Shown here piece by piece: positions 3,882 to 33,474 of a stretch of DNA of 43,613 nucleotides. The DNA lies in the IMG/VR virus record IMGVR_UViG_2654587728_000013, positions 1-43,613 of that record, one strand, 5' to 3'. Numbering within the stretch: the first letter of the stretch is position 1; the number at the start of each line of letters is the position of its first letter. The DNA is from a virus (Duplodnaviria > Heunggongvirae > Uroviricota > Caudoviricetes). The notes beneath the pieces are model-generated. The model did not search any database and had not been told where the DNA came from. It was given only the letters and a program-made list of their open reading frames with translations. A program made the position numbers and the translations under genes.

Positions 3882-4874
3882 TCAGTAGTTGATGGTTGTT
3901 GCTGGAACTTTCCCGCGAGCGATGGCGACAACACATGCTTTCGCCCAGTCATCAGGAATACCCTGTTCAATGAGCGCCTGAACCGCAGCAGCATTAATGG
4001 CACGACGGTGCTCTACATCAGCAGCGCGTGCTGCCGCTTCATCAGCGATGCGCTTCTCTTCCGCCAGACGGGCTACTTCTTTCGCTTCAGCTTCACGCTT
4101 GATGCGATCGGCTTCTTCCTGCGCTTTGCGTTGCTCAACTGCGATAGCTTCCTGTTTTTCGCGCTCGGCACGATCTGCGGCTTCCTTCTTCTCTGCTTCA
4201 GCTTTTTGCTCTGTGGCAATGCGGTTACGCTCTGCTTGCTCTGCCTTGAGCTTTAATTCAGCCTCACGACGGGCAGATTCAGCGCGTTCACGCTCTATTT
4301 TCTCTTCAGCTTCACGCCTGGCCTTTTCTTCCGCCTGGCGCTTCAACTCTTCTTCATGAGCAATGCGCTGGCGCTCTGCTTCTTCTGCTTTCGCCTTCGC
4401 TTCTCGGTCGAATGCGTCGTTCATCAGCAGGGCCATCTCGTGATCCGCTTCGAACTTGGCAGCCCGCTCCTGATCGAACTTGATGTTCATCTCCAGTGCT
4501 TCGGCGTGCAGCACATTCATGGCTTCTTCAGCCTTGATGCGTTCCTGCTCGGCCTCCCATTCGGTAAGTGGGCGGCGAACCTCATCGCGCATCTCATCGC
4601 AAGCTGATACAAATCGACGCAGTTCAGCCTCAGCAGGTTTGACGGCTTCTTTCAGATGACGAAGGTAATCTCGACCAGGCTTTTCAACTGCTGTTTTACT
4701 GCGAGAAACCTGTGCTGCCAGAGATGCAATGCGGGCACGACCTTTGGCAGTGCTCAGGTCCGGAACTTCGTTAACGCTTTCGCGGATCTGTTCGAGGAAC
4801 TTTTCCAGACCGTTTTCTACGTAAATGCTTGGCGCCATATCTGGCGCAATTTCGATAATTGCTAATTCGCTCAC
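3882..4874 (-). CDS. highly charged coiled-coil protein (Glu/Arg/Ala/Lys-rich), function unknown
   Basis: 330 aa; ~200-aa central E/R/A/K heptad-like low-complexity region; GTG start with GGGGGTGAG RBS. Confidence 0.6.
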   Translation of the reverse strand: MSELAIIEIAPDMAPSIYVENGLEKFLEQIRESVNEVPDLSTAKGRARIASLAAQVSRSKTAVEKPGRDYLRHLKEAVKPAEAELRRFVSACDEMRDEVRRPLTEWEAEQERIKAEEAMNVLHAEALEMNIKFDQERAAKFEADHEMALLMNDAFDREAKAKAEEAERQRIAHEEELKRQAEEKARREAEEKIERERAESARREAELKLKAEQAERNRIATEQKAEAEKKEAADRAEREKQEAIAVEQRKAQEEADRIKREAEAKEVARLAEEKRIADEAAARAADVEHRRAINAAAVQALIEQGIPDDWAKACVVAIARGKVPATTINY

Positions 4875-5020
4875 TTACTCACCCCCATATCCATTTCCGT
4901 TTTTACCGCCAGCTTGCTGACGAATACCCAGTTCATTGCTTCACCCAGCGTGCGGAACTTCCAGCTCATCAGCCCGCAAGCTGTAACGCAGTACCAACCA
5001 TTGATGACTTTCCACTGCAT
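4871..5020 (-). CDS. small hypothetical protein, first gene of early-left operon
   Basis: Short version of ORF 4871..5152(-); start chosen at MQWKV (RBS AGAGAGG) because two perfect operator sites lie inside the longer ORF. Confidence 0.3.
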   Translation of the reverse strand: MQWKVINGWYCVTACGLMSWKFRTLGEAMNWVFVSKLAVKTEMDMGVSK

Positions 5021-5032
5021 ACGAACCTCTCT

Positions 5033-5188
5033 ATTACCATTTTGGTAATACCTGGAGATGCAGGAAAACCACGAAGTGGTGGTTTCTGCCTGAGCGATGC
5101 GCTCATGTATTACCTTTTGGGTAATAATCAGATCAAAAAGTGATTGTGTCAATAGGTATGACGAGAAAAAAATTACCGTTTTGGTAAT
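5033..5188. promoter_or_regulatory. OL-like operator triplet: ATTACC-N5-GGTAAT at 5033..5049, 5109..5125, 5172..5188
   Basis: Three perfect 17-bp palindromes spaced 76 and 63 bp; minus-strand TTGACA (5147-5152) 17 bp from GATTAT overlapping site 2. Confidence 0.6.
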
Positions 5189-5895: not shown

Positions 5896-5959
5896 ATTAC
5901 CATAAAGGTAAAGTTACCATAACGGTAATAATCATTGATTTTTTCACCAGAAAGGTAAT
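5896..5959. promoter_or_regulatory. OR-like operator triplet: 5896..5912, 5913..5929 (TTACC-N5-GGTAA) and 5943..5959 (TCACC variant)
   Basis: Divergent intergenic region between repressor and Cro-like gene; plus-strand TTGATT (5935-5940) then TAATAA/ATAATT about 17 bp downstream overlapping third site. Confidence 0.6.
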
Positions 5960-8232: not shown

Positions 8233-8249
8233 ATTACCAAAAGGGTAAT
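8233..8249. promoter_or_regulatory. operator copy ATTACC-AAAAG-GGTAAT
   Basis: Perfect TTACC-N5-GGTAA in intergenic region upstream of resolvase gene. Confidence 0.5.
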
Positions 8250-8294
8250 AAAATATGCGCATTGCTATTGAAATTAACCCATTTGTGGTTTTAA

Positions 8295-8311
8295 ATTACC
8301 TGAGAGGTAAA
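8295..8311. promoter_or_regulatory. operator copy ATTACC-TGAGA-GGTAAA overlapping RBS of resolvase gene
   Basis: Perfect TTACC-N5-GGTAA ending 3 bp before ATG at 8314. Confidence 0.5.
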
Positions 8312-10720: not shown

Positions 10721-10737
10721 ATTACCAAAACGGTAAT
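10721..10737. promoter_or_regulatory. operator copy ATTACC-AAAAC-GGTAAT upstream of terminase genes
   Basis: Perfect TTACC-N5-GGTAA between terminator and small terminase start. Confidence 0.5.
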
Positions 10738-10756
10738 TATTACTTCGGTGGTAACA

Positions 10757-11350
10757 ATGCCCGCAGAACCAAAAGCACCAAAACGCAAATCAACGCAGTA
10801 TAAGCCAATTACAGCGATGCAGGAGGCTTACGCGCAGGAATATACCAAATGCCCTGAGAATCAGACTCAGGCAGCGATTAACGCAGGATTTTCGCCAAAT
10901 ACGGCGGCAGTCAAGGCCAGTGTCATGATGCGTGATGAGCGTATCCAGAAACGGATCGCCGAACTGATGGAAGAGCGTAACAAGCGTTTGCGCGTCAGTG
11001 CGGACTACGTACTGCTCCGCCTGGTGGAAATTGACCAGATGGACGTGATCGATATCCTGAACGATGACGGCACACTGAAGCCTATCCGCGAGTGGCCAAA
11101 GATATGGCGTACTACACTGAGCGGTTTCGATTTGTCATCGACCATCATGAATATGAACGAGGATTCGATAGAAACAATCCTCAAAAAAATCAAATGGCCT
11201 GACAAGGTGAAGAACCTCGAGCTTATCGGTAAGCACGTCGACGTCAATGCGTTCAAAGAGCGCATGGAGGTTTCCGGCACAGTAACGATTGCCGACCGCA
11301 TGGCGAAGGCCCGCCGTCGCGTGAAAGAGCTGGATGGTGGTGAAGAATGA
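10757..11350 (+). CDS. terS: terminase small subunit
   Basis: ORF 10709..11350 trimmed to MPAEPKAPKRK; P27-like small terminase signature (AYAQEY...AAINAGFSP); immediately upstream of large subunit. Confidence 0.7.
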   Translation: MPAEPKAPKRKSTQYKPITAMQEAYAQEYTKCPENQTQAAINAGFSPNTAAVKASVMMRDERIQKRIAELMEERNKRLRVSADYVLLRLVEIDQMDVIDILNDDGTLKPIREWPKIWRTTLSGFDLSSTIMNMNEDSIETILKKIKWPDKVKNLELIGKHVDVNAFKERMEVSGTVTIADRMAKARRRVKELDGGEE

Positions 11351-12822
11351 CAGCCGCAGCCATGTCGCCGGAAGAGCAGCTTGTCGAGGATATTGCATCG
11401 TTCACATATGACCCGCTGGGCTATTCGCTGTATGCGTTTCCGTGGGGCGAAGAGGGGACAGAACTGGCGCATGCCACCGGCCCGCGAAAATGGCAGGCAG
11501 ACGCATTCCGCGAGATACGCGATCACCTGCAGAATCCAGCAACGCGTCACCAGCCGCTGATGTTGGCCCGCGCATCCGGCCACGGTATCGGTAAATCTGC
11601 GTTCATCTCGATGCTCATCAACTGGGGCATGTCTACCTGTGAAGACTGCAAGGTGGTGGTGACCGCCAACACCGACAACCAGCTGCGCACCAAAACATGG
11701 CCTGAAATCATCAAATGGTCGAACCTGGCTATCACGAAAGAGTGGTTCACCTGCACCGCCACCGCGATGTACAGCAACGATCCCGGTCACGACAAACGCT
11801 GGCGCGCTGATGCTATTCCATGGTCTGAACACAACACCGAGGCGTTCGCCGGTCTGCACAACGAACGCAAGCGCATCATCGTTGTATTCGATGAAGCGTC
11901 CAACATTGCCGATCTGGTGTGGGAAGTTGCCGAGGGTGCGCTGACGGACGAAGACACCGAAATCATCTGGGTGGCGTTCGGGAACCCTACGCGTAACACC
12001 GGGCGTTTCCGTGAATGCTTCCGCAAATACAAACACCGCTGGAAGTGCGCGCAGATAGACAGCCGCACCGTGGAAGGCACCAACAAGCAGCAGTTGCAGA
12101 AGTGGGTTGATGACTACGGCGAGGATAGCGACTTCGTGAAAGTTCGTGTACGCGGGATCTTCCCTGATGCGTCTGAACTCCAGTTTATCCCGACAGGCCT
12201 GACTGATTCCGCAATGAAGCGCGTGGTGACAGCCGGGCAGGTGGCGCACGCTCCGGTGATTATCGGTGTTGACCCGGCGTATTCCGGTGTGGATGACGCG
12301 GTGATATACCTGCGCCAGGGGCTTCACAGCAAAGTGCTATGGACCGGCAATAAGACAACCGATGATCTGATTATGGCAAAGCGTATCGCTGATTTTGAAG
12401 ACCAGTACCAGGCTGACGCTGTATTCATCGACTTCGGGTATGGTACCGGGCTGAAGTCAATCGGTGATGGCTGGGGCCGTTCCTGGCAACTGATACCTTT
12501 CGGCGGCGGCTCTACCGATCCGCAGATGCTCAACAAGCGCGGCGAGATGTTCAACAGCTGCAAAACGTGGCTGAAAATTGGTGGCGCACTGGATGACCAG
12601 GAAACGGCTGACGACCTGTCGGCGGCTGAGTACAAAGTCAGGGTGGACGGCAAGATAGTTATTGAGCCGAAGGAAGATATCAAAGAGCGGTTAGGCCGTT
12701 CTCCTGGCAAGGGTGATGCGCTGCTGCTGACGTTTGCTTTCCCGGTGTCGAAACGTATGAATATACCAGGACAGCAAAGCCAGCAGGGCAAGGCGTTGAC
12801 AGAATACGACCCCTATGCATAG
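11347..12822 (+). CDS. terL: terminase large subunit
   Basis: 491 aa; Walker A-like ASGHGIGKS, Walker B-like IIVVFDEASN; ATGA overlap with small subunit. Confidence 0.85.
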   Translation: MTAAAMSPEEQLVEDIASFTYDPLGYSLYAFPWGEEGTELAHATGPRKWQADAFREIRDHLQNPATRHQPLMLARASGHGIGKSAFISMLINWGMSTCEDCKVVVTANTDNQLRTKTWPEIIKWSNLAITKEWFTCTATAMYSNDPGHDKRWRADAIPWSEHNTEAFAGLHNERKRIIVVFDEASNIADLVWEVAEGALTDEDTEIIWVAFGNPTRNTGRFRECFRKYKHRWKCAQIDSRTVEGTNKQQLQKWVDDYGEDSDFVKVRVRGIFPDASELQFIPTGLTDSAMKRVVTAGQVAHAPVIIGVDPAYSGVDDAVIYLRQGLHSKVLWTGNKTTDDLIMAKRIADFEDQYQADAVFIDFGYGTGLKSIGDGWGRSWQLIPFGGGSTDPQMLNKRGEMFNSCKTWLKIGGALDDQETADDLSAAEYKVRVDGKIVIEPKEDIKERLGRSPGKGDALLLTFAFPVSKRMNIPGQQSQQGKALTEYDPYA

Positions 12823-13094
12823 TGAATTGATATCAGAGCTACAACCAAGGCAACTAATGCAATGATTAGTGACGCACCAGTTAGCAAAAGTGATGCGGTA
12901 TTCATCATGCGCTGATAATAGAATGCACGCATTGACTCTATTCTTTCACCGGTCTCAGCAGGGTCTTTTAATCCATTAGGGAATGTGCTTTCAAATCCTT
13001 CAAATACCTTTCTTTCAATGGCATTGTGCATGGCCATGTTCCACTCATGGGTTGAGTTCACAAAGGTATTAACAATTTTTTGTTTAATTTTCAT
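12813..13094 (-). CDS. small C-terminally membrane-anchored protein (moron)
   Basis: ORF 12813..13172 trimmed to MKIKQK so it excludes the terminator hairpin; C-terminal TM helix LLLTGASLIIALVALVVALISI; opposite strand to flanking operon. Confidence 0.45.
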   Translation of the reverse strand: MKIKQKIVNTFVNSTHEWNMAMHNAIERKVFEGFESTFPNGLKDPAETGERIESMRAFYYQRMMNTASLLLTGASLIIALVALVVALISIHYA

Positions 13095-13136
13095 GGTCCA
13101 CTCGCTGTGATAATCGAATGAGTGATTATGCCATAC

Positions 13137-13160
13137 AAAAAAGCCCGCGCATCGGCGGGC
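13137..13160 (-). terminator. rho-independent terminator (minus strand)
   Basis: GCCCGC-GCATCG-GCGGGC hairpin with T-run on minus strand, just downstream of stop of 13182..13613. Confidence 0.55.
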
Positions 13161-13165
13161 TGAAT

Positions 13166-13177
13166 GTGACATGTCAC
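13166..13177. repeat. 12-bp palindrome GTGACATGTCAC (copy 2 of 3)
   Basis: Exact copy; lies between stop of 13182..13613 and its terminator hairpin. Confidence 0.6.
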
Positions 13178-13181
13178 AGCG

Positions 13182-13613
13182 TTATATCAAATCTTTCCAT
13201 TCTACCCATTTTCCAGTTCTGCGATGGACCTCATCTCGTTTCAAAAACAGCAACTCCCTGCATCGTTCGCAGCCATCAAACTCATCGGAATTATTCTTGA
13301 AATTTTTTGCTCGGCGATACGTATAAATCCCGCAAACACAACGAGCAACATAGCGAGCACCTTTATTTTTTGCTCCTTGCGTGACAGCAAGGCCAATTAT
13401 TGTCAATCTCCCGCGCTTTCTTCCGATCATTGCTTTCACTTCTCGCCGTTGTTGCGGGTTTTTAATGTTATATACAGAAAACACTGGCAACGGCAGATCG
13501 CTGTCTCCTGTCTGGATAACTTTGTTTGGTGTCCAATCCACGCCCTTACCAACAACTCTCGCAGCAACCCGGTCAACCGGAAGGCGCTTCATGTCAAACA
13601 GGTCTTTGCTCAT
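13182..13613 (-). CDS. hypothetical basic Cys-cluster protein (moron)
   Basis: 143 aa; RBS AAGGTGAG; C-terminal CVCG...CERC cluster; opposite strand to flanking terminase/portal genes. Confidence 0.5.
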   Translation of the reverse strand: MSKDLFDMKRLPVDRVAARVVGKGVDWTPNKVIQTGDSDLPLPVFSVYNIKNPQQRREVKAMIGRKRGRLTIIGLAVTQGAKNKGARYVARCVCGIYTYRRAKNFKNNSDEFDGCERCRELLFLKRDEVHRRTGKWVEWKDLI

Positions 13614-13620
13614 AATCTCA

Positions 13621-13647
13621 CCTTAAAAAAATGCCCACCGAAGTGGG
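13621..13647 (-). terminator. intrinsic terminator on minus strand abutting the RBS of 13182..13613
   Basis: Minus strand reads GCCCAC-UUCG-GUGGGC followed by seven U, then AAGGTGAG-ATG. Confidence 0.55.
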
Positions 13648-14250
13648 CGAACTGGAAGTAAGGGTGCCTTCCATGGCAGTTACGGGTTTACAGCGCAACG
13701 TCATCGCAATGGCGTTCTGCTGTAAAAAAAGTGTCGGTACCAGCGAGGGGCAACTCGGGATGAATCTGGCACCGACAAAGTCACACAGCAATTACATTGG
13801 CACTACGGTTTACCACGGTCCTAACGTGATTCGTTTGTGGTGGCTGGTGCTGAACTCCAGCTCAGTGGCGCGGTGTTTCAATATCGTAACCGCCCGTTCC
13901 ATCCGCGTTCGATCAGTCCGTATGCTCGCTTAGAACGTTTCGCCTGCTTATCTTTTCTCAACCGTTTGACGGTCAGCCCCGCCATTAACCACAACATTGA
14001 GAGCACTGCGCCTGTATCGGTTAGCGTCATGGGATTAACCGGTCACCCCAATGCTCTCATCGTTGCATCCTCGTCTCTTCCGAGGTGTCACACCGTATCG
14101 CCACGATGGTGAATCGTCTGTCCGTGCTTACCTGACACTGGCTTGCACATTCCGGCTACCCGGCTGGGGAAGTAGCATCAATGGAACCCATCCGGACCGC
14201 TGCGGCACATGTGCCATATGCCGTACATCAACTGCGTTACATCAACATCA

Positions 14251-14267
14251 ATTACCTAAAAGGTAAT
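14251..14267. promoter_or_regulatory. operator copy ATTACC-TAAAA-GGTAAT upstream of portal operon
   Basis: Perfect TTACC-N5-GGTAA about 90 bp upstream of small ORF 14357. Confidence 0.5.
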
Positions 14268-14356
14268 ATCTGATGTTATAAGTGTCAATAGCCTACGCTA
14301 AATAAATCATATGTGGTTAAATTGGTAATAATTTAATTGCGTACGGAGCTATTGCT

Positions 14357-14563
14357 ATGTGTATCGGCAGCAAGCCATCAGTGCCAGCAGCGCCAGAAGT
14401 ACAGGCTGCGCCACAGGAGCAGGATGCAGCAGTTGTCAGTTCTCGTGACGACGAAGAACGCCGCCGCCGTGCAGCAGCAGGACGCAGTTCCACTCTGCTG
14501 ACTGGTGCTCAGGGTGACACCTCAACCGCAAACACCAGCGGTAAAACGCTGCTTGGTCAGTAA
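14357..14563 (+). CDS. small low-complexity protein preceding portal
   Basis: 68 aa; RBS GGAG 8 nt upstream; Ala/Gln/Arg-rich; could be spurious. Confidence 0.35.
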   Translation: MCIGSKPSVPAAPEVQAAPQEQDAAVVSSRDDEERRRRAAAGRSSTLLTGAQGDTSTANTSGKTLLGQ

Positions 14564-14577
14564 CGGAGTAGGCAGAG

Positions 14578-16248
14578 ATGGCGGAAACCGAAAAAGAGCG
14601 CCTGCTGAAGCAACTTGCGCAGCTGAAGAATGAGCGCACATCGTTCGAATCGCACTGGCGTGATCTGAGTGACTTCATCAATCCGCGTGGCTCCCGCTTT
14701 CTGACATCTGATGTAAACCGTGATGATCGCCGTAACACCAAGATTGTTGATCCCACTGGCTCAATGGCTCAGCGCATTCTGTCCAGCGGCATGATGTCAG
14801 GCATCACCAGTCCGGCACGACCGTGGTTCAAACTGGCAACGCCTGACCCTGACATGATGGACTATGGCCCGGTGAAAATCTGGCTGGAAGTCGTGCAGCG
14901 CCGCATGAACGAAGTGTTCAACAAATCGAATTTGTATCAGTCACTGCCTGTTATGTACGCAAGTCTGGGTACTTTCGGCACCGGCGCTATGGCTGTTCTG
15001 GAAGATGACCAGGACGTGATCCGCACAATGCCTTTCCCTATTGGCAGTTACTACCTGGCTAACAGTCCGCGCGGTAGCGTAGACACCTGCATTCGCCAGT
15101 TCTCCATGACCGTGCGCCAGATGGTGCAGGAATTCGGTCTGGATAACGTCAGTACATCCGTAAAAGGCATGTGGGAAAATGGCACGTATGAAACGTGGGT
15201 GGAGGTTAACCACTGCATCACGCCTAACGTCAACCGCGACAGCGGTAAGATGGACAGCAAGAACAAGCCTTACCGCTCTGTCTATTTCGAAACTGGCGGT
15301 GACGCTGACAAGCTGCTGCGTGAATCCGGATTTGATGAATTCCCTATTCTGGCGCCGCGCTGGGAAGTGAATGGCGAAGACGTTTACGCCTCATCCTGTC
15401 CTGGAATGCTGGCACTCGGTCAGGTTAAAGCCCTTCAGGTTGAGCAGAAGCGCAAAGCTCAGTTGATCGATAAAGCCACTAACCCGCCGATGGTTGCCCC
15501 GACATCGCTCAAGAATCAGCGGGTTTCCCTGTTGCCTGGCGATGTGACGTACCTCGACGTGTTGACCGGTCAGGATGGTTTCAAACCTGCATACCTGGTA
15601 AACCCGAATACCGCCGACCTGCTGGCTGACATTCAGGACACTAGGCAGACCATCAACAGCGCCTACTTCGTTGACCTCTTCATGATGCTGCAAAACATCA
15701 ACACCCGATCTATGCCGGTGGAAGCGGTGATCGAGATGAAGGAAGAGAAACTGCTGATGCTTGGCCCGGTGCTTGAGCGCCTGAATGACGAAGCGCTTAA
15801 CCCGCTTATCGATCGCGTGTTCTCAATCATGGCCCGCAAGAACATGTTGCCAGAACCTCCTGACGTTCTTCAGGGTATGCCGCTGCGTATCGAGTACATC
15901 TCTGTGATGGCTCAGGCTCAGAAATCTATCGGCCTCACCAGCCTGTCGCAGACAGTTGGATTTATCGGGCAACTGGCGCAGTTCAAACCTGAAGCGCTCG
16001 ACAAGCTTGATGTGGATCAGGCTATCGACGCGTTCTCTGAAATGTCAGGCGTATCGCCAACCGTCATCGTTCCGCAGGAGCAGGTACAGGGTATTCGTGA
16101 AGAGCGAGCTAAACAGGCTCAGGCGGCACAGGCAATGGCTATGGGTCAGGCGGCAGCGCAGGGGGCCAAGACTCTCAGCGAAACGCAGACCAGCGACCCG
16201 AGCGCATTAACTGCTATCGCTAATGCAGCAGGAGCACCGCAGCAATGA
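14578..16248 (+). CDS. portal protein
   Basis: 556 aa directly after terminase module; RBS GGAG; size and position typical of portal. Confidence 0.75.
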   Translation: MAETEKERLLKQLAQLKNERTSFESHWRDLSDFINPRGSRFLTSDVNRDDRRNTKIVDPTGSMAQRILSSGMMSGITSPARPWFKLATPDPDMMDYGPVKIWLEVVQRRMNEVFNKSNLYQSLPVMYASLGTFGTGAMAVLEDDQDVIRTMPFPIGSYYLANSPRGSVDTCIRQFSMTVRQMVQEFGLDNVSTSVKGMWENGTYETWVEVNHCITPNVNRDSGKMDSKNKPYRSVYFETGGDADKLLRESGFDEFPILAPRWEVNGEDVYASSCPGMLALGQVKALQVEQKRKAQLIDKATNPPMVAPTSLKNQRVSLLPGDVTYLDVLTGQDGFKPAYLVNPNTADLLADIQDTRQTINSAYFVDLFMMLQNINTRSMPVEAVIEMKEEKLLMLGPVLERLNDEALNPLIDRVFSIMARKNMLPEPPDVLQGMPLRIEYISVMAQAQKSIGLTSLSQTVGFIGQLAQFKPEALDKLDVDQAIDAFSEMSGVSPTVIVPQEQVQGIREERAKQAQAAQAMAMGQAAAQGAKTLSETQTSDPSALTAIANAAGAPQQ

Positions 16249-28500: not shown

Positions 28501-31046
28501 TGGCTAACGAATTTCTTACGCAATGCGAAATGACCGTCAATGCAGCTGCCGGGCGCAAGCTGTCTGATGACGAAATGGAATCTTTGGTGCGTGACATGAA
28601 CGACACCACAAACCGGATACTGGCTGGTAATGAAGCACTGACGCTGGAAGAAGCAGCGATGCGCGCCGCGCAGGAGCTTGGTAATCGCGAGCAACTGGCT
28701 AAAGTCATTGAGGCACGGAATAAGGCCATTAATACCCGTATTGCAGCTCAGCGCCTTGGCGAGCTTCGCCGGACTTGGAAAGACCGTCCGGACATCGGTC
28801 TGGAGGCTATTCTTGTCGGACGTAATGACGCGCGCACTGGTTCCCGCCGCTCGGTATCCTCTGAGGTTGCCCAACTGCGCGGTAAGTATCATGCTGGTAT
28901 CAACTATGATTTCGACCAGGCAGGACTGGTTAAATTTATTGCCAGTGGCAGCAATGACCGCGAGATAGCCGACGCCATGTGGCGCATTGGCCGCGGACAG
29001 AAAACGGACGGTATGACGCCGCAATCAGTCAGTGCCGCTAAGATCATCATGAAGTGGCAGGAAACTGCGCGCGTGGATGAAAACCGTGCTGGTGCCTGGA
29101 TTGGTAAGATGCCTGGCTACATCGTCCGGCAGTCGCATGACATACTGAAAATCCGTGCCGCCGGGTATGAATCCTGGCGCAATACCATTCTGCCGCGGCT
29201 GGATGATGCCACCTTTGACGGGATCACAGACCGAGAAGGGTTCCTGCGTGGTGTCTACGACGGCCTTGCCTCCGGTGTGCACCTTACCTCTGAAAAACCA
29301 GACTGGATGAATGGCTTTAAGGGATCGGCGAATGCGGCCAAACGAGCCAGCCAGGAGCGGGTGTTGCACTTCAAAGACGGTGTTAACTGGCACGAATACA
29401 ACGAGCAATTCGGAACTGGCAGCCTGCGTGAGGCAGTATTCGGCGGACTGAACAGCGCGGCGCGCACTACGGGCATGATGCGCGTGCTTGGTACCAACCC
29501 GCAGAACATGTTCAAGTACCTGACAGACACCATCGCAAAAGACGTGAGCAAGCAGAGCAACCCTTCGGCGCTGGCTGATTTCATGACCAAGGTGCGCCGC
29601 CTGAATCGCACGGTTATGCCACAGGTTGATGGATCGCTGAATATCCCCGGCAGTGTTGGCTGGGCTAATGCCTCAGCCAACGTGCGCGGCTGGCTGCGTA
29701 TGAGTCAGCTTGGAGGAGCGGTCATTTCATCTTTTAACGACGTGCCAATCTCGGCGACAGAAATGCGGTATCAGGGCCAGAACTTCATGCAGGCGCTGAC
29801 CGGCGCGATGAAGGGGCGCTTTTCCCGCTACACCAGTGATGAGCAGAAGGAGATCCTTTCATCTATCGGCGTTTACTCCGACGCGATGACGCAGGAAATC
29901 ATCCGTCGCATGTCTGGCGACGACAGCATGAGCGGCAAGATGGGGCGTGCGCAGCAGCTATTCTTCAAATACAACCTTATGAACTTCTGGACAGAATCCG
30001 GGCGTAACAGCAACGCCATGATGATAACAAACTGGCTGGCGAAGAACGCCGATCAGCAATTTTCTGCACTGCCGGAGGACCTGCGCCGCGTTCTGGACCT
30101 GCACGGCATAGGTGACGCTGAATGGAATATCTACCGCAGCATGGACATGGCAGACAGCGAAGGCCGCAAATTCATGACGACCAGCGGAATTCGTGGCGTT
30201 CCGGATGAGGTGATAGCCTCATATGTTGAAGGAAAAGGCATGAAGGTCACCGAGCGATCTATTGCCGATGCGAGAGACACGCTGGAAAGCCAACTTCGTG
30301 GGTATATTCTTGACCGACTAAACATCGCTATGTCAGAGCCGGGAGATCGTACGCAGGCGTTTATGAAGATGGGCACTGTACCAGGAACAGTAGCTGGGGA
30401 GGCAATACGTTTCGCTGGTCAGTACAAATCGTTCACTGCGAGTTTCATGCAGAACGTGCTTGGACGTGAGGTATTCGGGCGCGGTTATACTCCCGCTGGC
30501 CTGGGTGAATCAAAAACAGGATCGCTGACGAATGCGCTGCTGCGTAACGGAAAAGGTGCATTCTTGGGGGCGGCAAACCTGTTCGTCTGGGCAACCATGT
30601 TTGGCTATATCTCTATGCAGTCGAAACTATTGCTTAAGGGGCAGACGCCGCGTCCGGCAGATGCCAAGACATTCCTCGCAGCCGCATCTCAGGGCGGCGG
30701 CCTAGGCATCTTGGGCGACTTCATGTTTGGCGAAGTCAATCGCATGGGTGCTGGTCCAGTGACATCATTGATGGGGCCAGCCGCGTCGAACGCTGATAGC
30801 ATTATCACGCTGTTCCAGCAGACAACGCGCGGCGATGCAGACCTGGGTGACTGGTATCGCACCGCGCTGGACAATACGCCTTTCCTTAACGTGTTCTGGC
30901 TGCGCACAGCAATGAATGGTTTAATATTGAACCGTATACAGGATGCTCTTGACCCTGGATCACTGGAGCGCTATCAGCGCCGTGTTGAACGGGAGCAGGG
31001 TAACGACTTTCTGATCCCACCATCGCAGTTCATGCTAGGGAAGTAA
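28500..31046 (+). CDS. large internal virion / ejection protein (putative)
   Basis: 848 aa; last large gene of the core block. Confidence 0.5.
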   Translation: MANEFLTQCEMTVNAAAGRKLSDDEMESLVRDMNDTTNRILAGNEALTLEEAAMRAAQELGNREQLAKVIEARNKAINTRIAAQRLGELRRTWKDRPDIGLEAILVGRNDARTGSRRSVSSEVAQLRGKYHAGINYDFDQAGLVKFIASGSNDREIADAMWRIGRGQKTDGMTPQSVSAAKIIMKWQETARVDENRAGAWIGKMPGYIVRQSHDILKIRAAGYESWRNTILPRLDDATFDGITDREGFLRGVYDGLASGVHLTSEKPDWMNGFKGSANAAKRASQERVLHFKDGVNWHEYNEQFGTGSLREAVFGGLNSAARTTGMMRVLGTNPQNMFKYLTDTIAKDVSKQSNPSALADFMTKVRRLNRTVMPQVDGSLNIPGSVGWANASANVRGWLRMSQLGGAVISSFNDVPISATEMRYQGQNFMQALTGAMKGRFSRYTSDEQKEILSSIGVYSDAMTQEIIRRMSGDDSMSGKMGRAQQLFFKYNLMNFWTESGRNSNAMMITNWLAKNADQQFSALPEDLRRVLDLHGIGDAEWNIYRSMDMADSEGRKFMTTSGIRGVPDEVIASYVEGKGMKVTERSIADARDTLESQLRGYILDRLNIAMSEPGDRTQAFMKMGTVPGTVAGEAIRFAGQYKSFTASFMQNVLGREVFGRGYTPAGLGESKTGSLTNALLRNGKGAFLGAANLFVWATMFGYISMQSKLLLKGQTPRPADAKTFLAAASQGGGLGILGDFMFGEVNRMGAGPVTSLMGPAASNADSIITLFQQTTRGDADLGDWYRTALDNTPFLNVFWLRTAMNGLILNRIQDALDPGSLERYQRRVEREQGNDFLIPPSQFMLGK

Positions 31047-33198: not shown

Positions 33199-33457
33199 CT
33201 TTTAGTCTGGTTAATCACCACCGGAGGTTCCAATCTCGGAGGTGGTGAACTGTGCAGGGTTGGAACTACCGGCTAAAAGGACCCGGCGCACCTTTCGGTG
33301 CCCCCACACAGCCCACCATAATGCGAATGTGGCCGTGCTTAACGCATAAAAAAACCGCTTGCGCGGTGAATGCGCCTTTTAGTATCCGGGGTTCCAATCC
33401 CGGCACTGGATTTTGCCAGTGCCTGATCACTATGGCACAAGTATTTTGCGTTGTAAA

Positions 33458-33474
33458 TTTACCGTAAAGGTAAT
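33458..33474. promoter_or_regulatory. operator copy TTTACC-GTAAA-GGTAAT in antirepressor promoter region
   Basis: Perfect TTACC-N5-GGTAA. Confidence 0.5.

Follow-up and report, generated by a model that had tools for sequence, protein, structure and literature searches.

A conserved pseudoknotted RNA encoded in a long non-coding gap of an epsilon15-like phage

The virus record IMGVR_UViG_2654587728_000013, analysed over its full 43,613 nucleotides (nt) and here called the window, is an epsilon15-like (Uetakevirus) phage or prophage. Between its terminase gene, which is accompanied by two minus-strand accessory genes, and the genes for gp3 and portal there is a gap of about 700 bp (13648-14356). 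This gap is the template of a leftward transcription unit made of a putative promoter, a structured RNA core, a long-range helix (P6), a second domain (domain B) and two terminators (T1 and T2). The core, which recurs in many temperate phages, is the subject of this article. A preliminary description, made from the letters of the window, had stated that the minus strand of the gap holds no open reading frame (ORF) of 60 amino acids (aa) or more, that the plus strand holds three overlapping ones, and that the segment ends at an intrinsic terminator abutting a 143-aa gene. All this is correct: the longest minus-strand ORFs measure 57, 50, 30 and 58 aa, the plus-strand ones 100, 91 and 71 aa in different frames, without a Pfam family match for any of the three, and the terminator is T2. 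One PHROG of unknown function, probably built from over-annotated ORFs, matches the 100-aa ORF in its first 40 aa and no further; the match falls in the conserved terminator-spacer region.

A gap of such length had also been called unusual for a phage. The length stands, the rarity does not: in this group the long non-coding gap is the rule and not an accident, since epsilon15 (~490 bp), SPN9TCW (~610 bp) and PAT1 (~1130 bp) have one at the same position. Comparison with other phages dissolves it into a mosaic of conserved modules. Positions 13608-13727 are 93-94% identical to epsilon15 and SPN9TCW, with an alignment to PAT1 at 79%; phage 15G shows 81% identity over 13814-14008; and many unrelated temperate phages have 14049-14226 in common.

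The last of these stretches contains the core. Its structure was derived by hand and comprises five helices including a pseudoknot (Table 1). Compensatory changes were already visible in an alignment of six homologues. The covariance model R1, applied to the window, finds the core at 14226-14065 with 164.6 bits (E ~1e-48). When 26 diverse sequences are aligned with MAFFT, 96.8% of the cells are paired, against 29-49% with the partners slid, and 11 of the 25 pairs have changed on both sides. With 94 distinct sequences, in an alignment that was fitted to the covariance model and therefore leans towards it, 97.1% are paired and compensatory change is seen in 14 of 25 pairs and 291 cells; none of 500 shuffles reaches the observed values. 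Pairs are kept by compensatory change beyond the controls, as in a conserved structured RNA. One U·G pair is invariant and G·U pairs are frequent. On the opposite strand these would be A·C mismatches, which places the RNA on the minus strand. Covariation thus proves a conserved RNA fold, and it is one of the minus strand. Homologous copies are 149-181 nt long, with differences that are not multiples of three.

Table 1. Features of the gap and its neighbourhood, in window coordinates
Feature	Position	Strand	Remarks
Large terminase gene	11347-12822	+	
Accessory gene	12813-13172	-	after the terminase gene
Terminator T3	13142-13161	-	after the 143-aa gene; overlaps the mechanical start of the 119-aa ORF (12813-13172)
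143-aa accessory gene (phrog_18493)	13182-13613	-	variable downstream cargo
T2, intrinsic terminator	13625-13648	-	GCCCAC-UUCG-GUGGGC, then A and U7; the ribosome-binding site of the 143-aa gene follows at once
Spacer with two hairpins	13653-13723	-	between T1 and T2; z = -2.84
T1, intrinsic terminator	13724-13776	-	hairpin GUCGGUGCCAG...CUGGUACCGAC, 12-bp stem, then AC and U7
Domain B, ~165 nt	13833-13995	-	second conserved domain; closed by GUUGUGGU/CACCACAA
P6, long-range helix	13999-14058	-	GAGAGCAUUG (14058-14049) with CAGUGCUCUC (14008-13999); encloses a variable insert
Conserved structured RNA core, 162 nt	14065-14226	-	P1, P2, junction, P3, P4 with pseudoknot, P5
P5, hairpin	14069-14085	-	CCUCG-GAAGAGA-CGAGG; resembles boxB
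P4, hairpin, and pseudoknot	14091-14117	-	ACGA/UCGU, loop UUCACCA; loop CACC pairs with downstream GGUG
Junction	14142-14160	-	GGUAGCCGGAAUGUGCAAG; most conserved stretch, near-invariant
P2	14160-14195	-	conserved base CCGG/CCGG, variable distal stem-loop; covariation
P1, hairpin	14203-14223	-	CGGCAUAU-GGCAC-AUGUGCCG; CGGCRUAU/AUGYGYCG, loop GGCAC; covarying pair
Regulatory region	14250-14356		module upstream of gp3
Putative repressor operator	14251-14267		palindrome ATTACCTAAAAGGTAAT (TTACC-N5-GGTAA); recurrent motif, overlaps the -10 hexamer
Putative -10 hexamer TACCTT	14260-14265	-	conserved in relatives; inside the operator palindrome
Putative -35 hexamer TTGACA	14283-14288	-	read from sequence; conserved in relatives
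gp3 lipoprotein gene	14357-14563	+	bounds the gap
Portal gene	14578-16248	+	after gp3

The helices differ in the way they vary. In P1 one pair is A-U in 42 sequences and G-C in 50, and the U·G pair is invariant in 91. P2 shows C-G (56) or U-A (30) in one pair and G-C (86), A-U (3) or U-A (2) in another; its distal part is replaced in other phages by different hairpins or three-way junctions. The junction was invariant in the first six sequences, and at least 120 IMG/VR contigs contain the exact 19-mer GGTAGCCGGAATGTGCAAG. A search that made no use of this 19-mer revealed a second subfamily with further covariation, where P1 reads CGCUG/CAGCG; there CCGGAAUGUGCAAG is kept, whereas GGUAG may become GAACA. 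P3 is a variable hairpin between junction and P4. Three of the four pairs of P4 show compensatory change (A-U/C-G/U-G; C-G/G-C), the pseudoknot has one covarying pair (C-G 85, A-U 4), and in P5 four of five pairs are compensatory (e.g., C-G 65/G-C 28; U-A 61/C-G 24). Hairpins of the type UGAC-N-[CCNGG-GAA(A/G)AGA-CCNGG] recur, up to five of them, along the early-left leaders of BUCT708 (L007) and mEp390 (L004), 200-750 nt around the core. These units, of which P5 is one instance, look like a repeated binding site for a protein or the polymerase.

Thermodynamics would not have disclosed this fold. On either strand the core region is no stabler than its shuffles when folded as a single sequence (z = 0.10 and 0.96), so that the core fold is established by comparative evidence only; the whole gap, on the minus strand, reaches z = -3.8 against just 20 shuffles. 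Some alternatives were considered and dismissed. In place of P1, RNAalifold had proposed, from the first alignment, a long-range GCACAU/AUGUGC pairing; the pairs of P1 covary and those segments are invariant. An RfaH ops-like reading of GGUAGC was rejected because the second subfamily has GAACAACC there. For a candidate kissing contact of the P1 loop with the junction (GCAC:GUGC) three single variants were seen, all uncompensated. An all-against-all search for column covariation, run with a filter that was too permissive, yielded a weak G-C/A-U signal between AGCGG and CCGG and no reliable tertiary pairs.

Of the 4227 covariance models of Rfam 15, only C4 and isrK, near 33.3 kb, match the whole window at the gathering threshold. 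Between 13100 and 14700, at E <= 10 with permissive filters, the scan yields only terminator-driven chance matches, which do not exceed 22 bits, lie no higher than position 13698 and leave the core free. Such a covariance-model scan for structured RNAs had been advised in the preliminary description; since it finds nothing, the RNA is recognisable only through comparative analysis. No account of the element turned up in the literature, which was searched for sequence strings and for topics. The core is a real, conserved RNA family, undescribed as far as these tools show. The C4 antisense RNA (77 bits) and isrK (76 bits) lie side by side at 33238-33422 on the minus strand, adjoined by operator sites at 33459 and 33842; the stretch is an immI-like antisense control module of the P1/P7 type inside an epsilon15-like phage.

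Not every copy of the core is single or complete. One viral contig (L024) carries two in tandem, at 3996-4155 and 4803-4960, ~650 nt apart. In two others (L133, 8821-8900; L149, 5510-5589) the 3' half stands alone, with the 3' part of the junction, P3, P4/pseudoknot and P5, and in both it directly follows a consensus TTGACA-N17-TAATAT promoter. For this reason the 3' half may be able to function independently of the rest.

Upstream of the core the window shows what looks like a leftward promoter. It falls below the threshold of a consensus scan, and its -10 hexamer matches in just 3 of 6 positions. In divergent epsilon15-like relatives, however, the distance from TTGACA/TTGACC to TACCTT is fixed at 17 nt, whereas the sequence of the spacer varies. 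Transcription would start near 14253, ~30 nt before P1. The palindrome TTACC-N5-GGTAA occurs 18 times in the window (12 times perfectly), against 0.77 expected, and none of 100 shuffles reaches 18. The sites cluster as in an oL/oR arrangement, and at the homologous place the epsilon15 annotation gives a repressor binding site beside one for IHF. We infer that the leftward promoter is controlled by the repressor, so that its transcript would be kept off in the lysogen and appear early once the prophage is induced. Elsewhere in the window the motif forms oL/oR-like triplets and, ahead of several operons, single sites (5034-5187, 5897-5958, 8234-8310, 10722-10754, 32420, 33459 and 33842); one site precedes the terminase genes. 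The repressor thus appears to act directly on many promoters, in line with the annotation of epsilon15. Covariation, the G·U pairs of the minus strand and the promoter and operator upstream all support a suggestion of the preliminary description, namely a structured RNA or leader transcribed leftward.

Beyond P5 the unit continues with P6. In 110 distinct contexts its arms are complementary in 10 of 10 positions (87 contexts) or 9 of 10 (23 contexts), against a mean best of 8.2 in shuffled sequences, and compensatory variants include GAGAGCAUUU/AAGUGCUCUC, AAGAGCAUUG/CAGUGCUCUU, GAGAGCGCAC/GUGCGCUCCC and AAGCGCAUUA/UAGUGCGCUC. Arms of the P6 type can be repeated inside one leader (L101). The inserts enclosed by P6 in Stx2a_1447 (L005, 2900-3000, minus strand) and in L101 contain tRNA-like 3' halves (GGTTCAATTCCAG... 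and GTCCGTTCGATTCGGAC...), which are not called by ARAGORN; they may be decayed tRNA cargo.

Domain B was seen in 34 loci, 22 with the core 257-610 nt upstream and 12 without it; in phage 15G it lies, without core, near tRNA-Met between a NinG-like gene and the lysis genes. RNAalifold proposes a fold for it that is 99% paired, but 33 of the 39 pairs never vary. Domain B is therefore too conserved for a covariation test, and its fold is unproven. In relatives its slot is occupied by tRNA-Arg(UCU). The copy in E2348/69 (L237, 2733-2845) is labelled 'pseudogenic tRNA-Gly' by PGAP (NCBI); neither ARAGORN (0 genes in the window) nor Rfam finds a tRNA at domain B. In the E2348/69 prophage the core occupies NC_011601 2836825-2836986.

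Both terminators have the G+C-rich hairpin and the U tract that define intrinsic terminators. T1, which the consensus scan and the preliminary description had missed, lies upstream of T2 and is the stronger one: its region (13712-13800) folds with -32.7 kcal/mol (z = -5.05), and none of 200 shuffles is as stable. A hairpin of epsilon15 homologous to T2 is annotated as rho-independent terminator. Only ~11 nt separate the U tract of T2 from the start codon of the 143-aa gene. Neither in the spacer between T1 and T2 nor before this gene was a promoter-like site found, so the gene can be reached only by read-through of both terminators. Relatives have unrelated genes in its slot. Further downstream, the true start of the gene of the 119-aa ORF is probably the internal MKIKQKIV..., which would yield a small membrane protein with a weak Hol_Tox match.

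All contexts of the core are phage, prophage or phage-plasmid, and Shiga-toxin, lambda-like and SPN1S-type Salmonella/E. coli phages are among the carriers. Among 126 copies, 59 have a cI-like repressor gene on the same strand 103-410 nt upstream, and 26 stand in an epsilon15-like context; some ten more are found just upstream of a DnaB-type helicase gene, and those that were read follow a tRNA(CAU). In the lambdoid phages read, the order is cI stop, terminator, operators with pL, element, and the element begins ~+8 to +110 from the predicted transcription start. The DnaB context is that of phages P1 and P7. In P1 the core (71,021-71,201; 141 bits) begins 13 nt after trnI (end 71,008) and precedes ban (start 71,295). 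Between core and ban there is an ORF of 14 codons (L185, ~2205-2295, read in the homologous L093), the stop codon of which overlaps the start codon of ban (GGAGTGTTAATG); the two may be translationally coupled. A tRNA gene lies within 1.1 kb in 40 of 150 distinct contexts, in all 40 on the strand of the element: tRNA(CAU) ends ~15 nt before P1, tRNA-Arg(UCU) starts ~65 nt after P5.

By blastn, 2133 of 5426 complete E. coli genomes have matches, some of them partial; in 566 a match covers at least 80% of the query. On plasmids there are 495 match places, and the one inspected carries P1-type tRNA genes. In a set of species-representative genomes a strict pattern found 21 contigs, 19 of them from Enterobacteriaceae or Erwinia; the other two are metagenome-assembled genomes from other groups and probably contaminated. 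Epsilon15 (L001/L129, 2612-2684 / 2652-2724) retains only a 73-nt remnant, essentially P1 (42 bits), from which it follows that the core is dispensable for this phage; it has an insert of its own of ~200 bp, which the authors of the record annotated as RNase III site. The cryptic prophage CPS-53 of E. coli K-12 has the downstream genes yfdP-yfdQ and no core.

Among 40 matches listed, none has the core annotated. Public records place 'hypothetical proteins' over the core or on the opposite strand (mEp390_036; features of SPN1S and phiV10), and these annotations, like the PGAP label of domain B, are probably wrong. Two records, 'Stenotrophomonas phage BUCT708' (L007, OM816834) and 'Pseudomonas phage 15b' (L006, LN889991/LN889992), contain enterobacterial lambdoid-type sequence with core or domain B; their host labels may be unreliable. 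The Pas small RNAs of enteropathogenic E. coli were considered as an identity and rejected, as they are located near Q and the lysis genes.

By position and type of phage, the closest functional analogue is put of HK022, a protein-independent processive antiterminator RNA that acts in cis through the zinc-binding domain of the beta' subunit of RNA polymerase. It lies just downstream of a repressor-controlled early-left promoter (PMC9378689). Both occur in temperate enterobacterial phages, are structured and highly conserved, and have terminators and early genes downstream; the lambdoid carriers of the element that were examined also have no N gene at pL. Short strings are common to both (ACGGCG, CAUGCGUCG, AAUG.UGC), among them a 5-bp stem CGGCG/CGUCG with ...CAUG on its 3' side, followed by AGCG... 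and AAUG.UGC. The differences are, however, considerable. Put measures ~70 nt and has two stems; the core has 162 nt and its five helices, plus P6. The element lies on the pL side in lambdoid carriers, but also after a tRNA in P1 and in epsilon15-like podoviruses, where the contexts are different. Homologues of put are nearly invariant and limited to HK022-like phages, whereas the element family has a far wider distribution and greater diversity. Neither putL nor putR of HK022 gives a match to R1, even with filters off on 2.2 kb, and membership in the put family was rejected, short strings being all they share. Put itself (L128, 28235-28310 on the minus and 29460-29530 on the plus strand) is nearly invariant over 37 viral contigs (L238-L274); putL variants AGACG/CGUCU and UGUCG/CGACA covary, in agreement with the 5' duplex seen by cryo-electron microscopy, and putL has ACGGCG...CAUGCGUCG in common with P1 of the element.

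With the nut sites of lambda, read by N, and the leader signals of rrn operons the element shares a promoter-proximal place in the pL leader. The boxB of lambda is GCCCU-GAAGA-AGGGC. P5 and the recurring hairpins with GAAAGA loops resemble it, but their loops have 6-7 nt (7 in P5) instead of 5, and the element is ten times larger. Strings like UGCUCUUU recall boxA; this reading was rejected, for UGCUCUUU is the paired 3' arm of P6. A lambda-type nut site, i.e., boxA (CGCUCUUA), a boxB pentaloop and an N gene, was not found: the core has no single-stranded boxA, and among the first early-left genes of the lambdoid carriers examined no N-type antiterminator is matched in Pfam or PHROGs.

Phage tRNA genes occur at this place as well: trnI in P1, tRNA-Arg(UCU) in SPN9TCW and in phages like phiV10. 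They lie on the strand of the element and belong to its transcription unit. Domain B takes the place of tRNA-Arg, the PGAP label being the sole hint of a tRNA. The core, however, has no cloverleaf, and the window holds no tRNA or tmRNA by ARAGORN and, between 13100 and 14700, no match to RF00005 at E <= 10. GOLLD and ROOL are large RNAs often found near tRNAs and in prophages (PMC5737381). Like them, the element is prophage-borne, adjacent to tRNAs and co-oriented with them (in the 40 contexts mentioned) and multi-domain, and the unit from promoter to T1, ~530 nt in the window, is near the size of ROOL (581 nt). Unlike them, it is tied in position to early promoters, it matches no Rfam model, and only the core of ~162 nt and P6 are conserved, the rest being exchangeable. 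GOLLD and ROOL are known mainly from Lactobacillales, rumen and lake samples; the element is confined to Enterobacteriaceae and Erwinia.

What does the RNA do? Tentatively, and with reservations of some weight, we prefer to see in it a leader of early operons that acts in cis near the promoter and makes transcription resistant to termination, as put does. The core, a portable leader, would fold on emerging from RNA polymerase and would thereby shield the elongation complex, or else the long untranslated transcript, against termination, be it by processive antitermination or by protection from Rho, in the manner of HK022 put RNA or of the rrn leader. This would permit expression of the cargo behind it, whether tRNAs, domain B, accessory genes, the early-left operon of lambdoid phages or ban of P1. 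This explanation is suggested by a constant core at the 5' end of early transcripts that is joined to exchangeable cargo (domain B, tRNA-Arg, other inserts, unrelated genes), which suits a mechanism for which neither distance nor cargo matters. The 143-aa gene behind two terminators and the lambdoid carriers without N at pL point in the same direction. So do promoter-like sites within 160 nt upstream, which are found on the sense strand at 43 of 157 loci and on the antisense strand at 6. In P1, processing of trnI would again put the core near a 5' end. The co-oriented tRNAs are untranslated cargo otherwise threatened by Rho, the strings in common with put also count in favour, and a narrow host range is expected for an RNA that fits the polymerase of one host.

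Several observations weigh against such a leader. In a crude scan, terminators downstream are no more frequent on the sense (73 of 157 loci) than on the antisense strand (76 of 157). Lambdoid loci have one copy, on the pL side, and none within ~3 kb on the pR side, unlike put, and neither putL nor putR is matched by the covariance model. Two epsilon15-like relatives (L065, L101) have no credible ORF downstream, a third locus (L161) only a tRNA, and epsilon15 itself makes do with its remnant. CRISPR interference with the P1 genes tciA through dbn showed the region to be non-essential (PMC10695390), so the element is dispensable in the laboratory. Finally, a pseudoknotted fold of five helices with a near-invariant junction is more elaborate than put. 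It is conceivable, though we are inclined to doubt it, that the element represents a new and widespread class of RNA-only processive antiterminator or anti-Rho leader, unrelated or very distantly related to put, which in P1/P7, Shiga-toxin and other lambdoid and epsilon15-like phages, hence in many E. coli genomes, licenses early operons and tRNA or non-coding RNA cargo without an antiterminator protein of the phage.

The main competitor, unlikely as we consider it, is a stable structured RNA that stands alone and acts in trans. The product would here be the ~530-nt transcript itself, which runs from promoter to T1 and comprises core, P6 and domain B; synthesised early in the lytic cycle, it would bind a macromolecule of host or phage for takeover or counter-defence, or be a tRNA-associated RNA of the GOLLD/ROOL type. 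A strong T1 that closes the unit ahead of any gene is what one would then expect, as are relatives with no ORF downstream, the complex fold with its pseudoknot and near-invariant single-stranded junction, and the 3' halves that directly follow consensus promoters. The location in islands of RNA genes with co-oriented tRNAs recalls that of GOLLD and ROOL. Yet in P1 the core leads on to ban, and the 93 nt read between the two show no obvious terminator; in lambdoid phages, where the element stands at the start of the main early-left operon, a terminated RNA would block the early genes. Moreover, only the core of such a 530-nt RNA is universal, the remainder being exchangeable, and the Rfam models of GOLLD and ROOL give no match.

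It is improbable that the helices are a scaffold for processing or stability, which would guide the cleavage of a polycistronic precursor by RNase III, E or P into tRNAs, domain B and mRNAs, or protect the 5' end of the RNA downstream. The arms of P6, it is true, enclose inserts that vary, and one leader (L101) has such arms repeatedly, much as stems enclose 16S and 23S rRNA in the precursor transcripts; and a tRNA is met at a fixed distance on either side. P6, however, has only ~10 + 4 bp, which is short for RNase III; the RNase III site annotated in the gap of epsilon15 belongs to the insert specific for that phage, outside the conserved core; and a pseudoknotted core of 162 nt with a near-invariant junction far exceeds the needs of a nuclease guide or a 5' hairpin. 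A riboswitch-like attenuator, in which the core senses a metabolite, an ion, a tRNA or a protein and decides whether T1 and T2 form, is more improbable still. A structured leader does lie upstream of terminators, and ACAGCAG beside T1 can pair either upstream or downstream, a hint of alternative structures; but the stretch from core to nearest terminator varies in content and, from 100 to more than 400 nt, in length, which leaves no conserved expression platform, and the genes downstream have no common function. A decayed protein-coding gene, the other suggestion of the preliminary description, or an element that matters as DNA only, for instance a recombination boundary or an array of protein-binding sites, is essentially excluded. 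The 'hypothetical proteins' annotated over the core (e.g., mEp390_036) would speak for the former, and arms around exchangeable inserts could serve homologous recombination between mosaic phages. There is, however, no Pfam match and no conservation of frame, substitutions are compensatory rather than codon-patterned, and constraints at the level of DNA or codons do not explain compensatory change in 14 core pairs and P6 or the strand-specific G·U pairs.

An unannotated pseudoknotted RNA, supported by covariation, is thus present in systems that have been well studied: P1 (trnI-ban), the pL leaders of Stx and other lambdoid phages, and phages of the epsilon15/SPN1S type. Its recognition has practical sides. 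Spurious 'hypothetical protein' and 'pseudogenic tRNA' annotations can be corrected, and the covariance model marks early promoters in prophages. The mechanism is directly testable with the standard genetics of E. coli, P1 and lambdoid phages. If the RNA acts in trans, GOLLD and ROOL, the tRNA-associated phage RNAs, would gain an enterobacterial counterpart that is tractable by genetics. If it acts in cis, it could explain early-left expression in lambdoid phages without N, and RNA-only processive antitermination, in phages known only from put of HK022, would become a common strategy.

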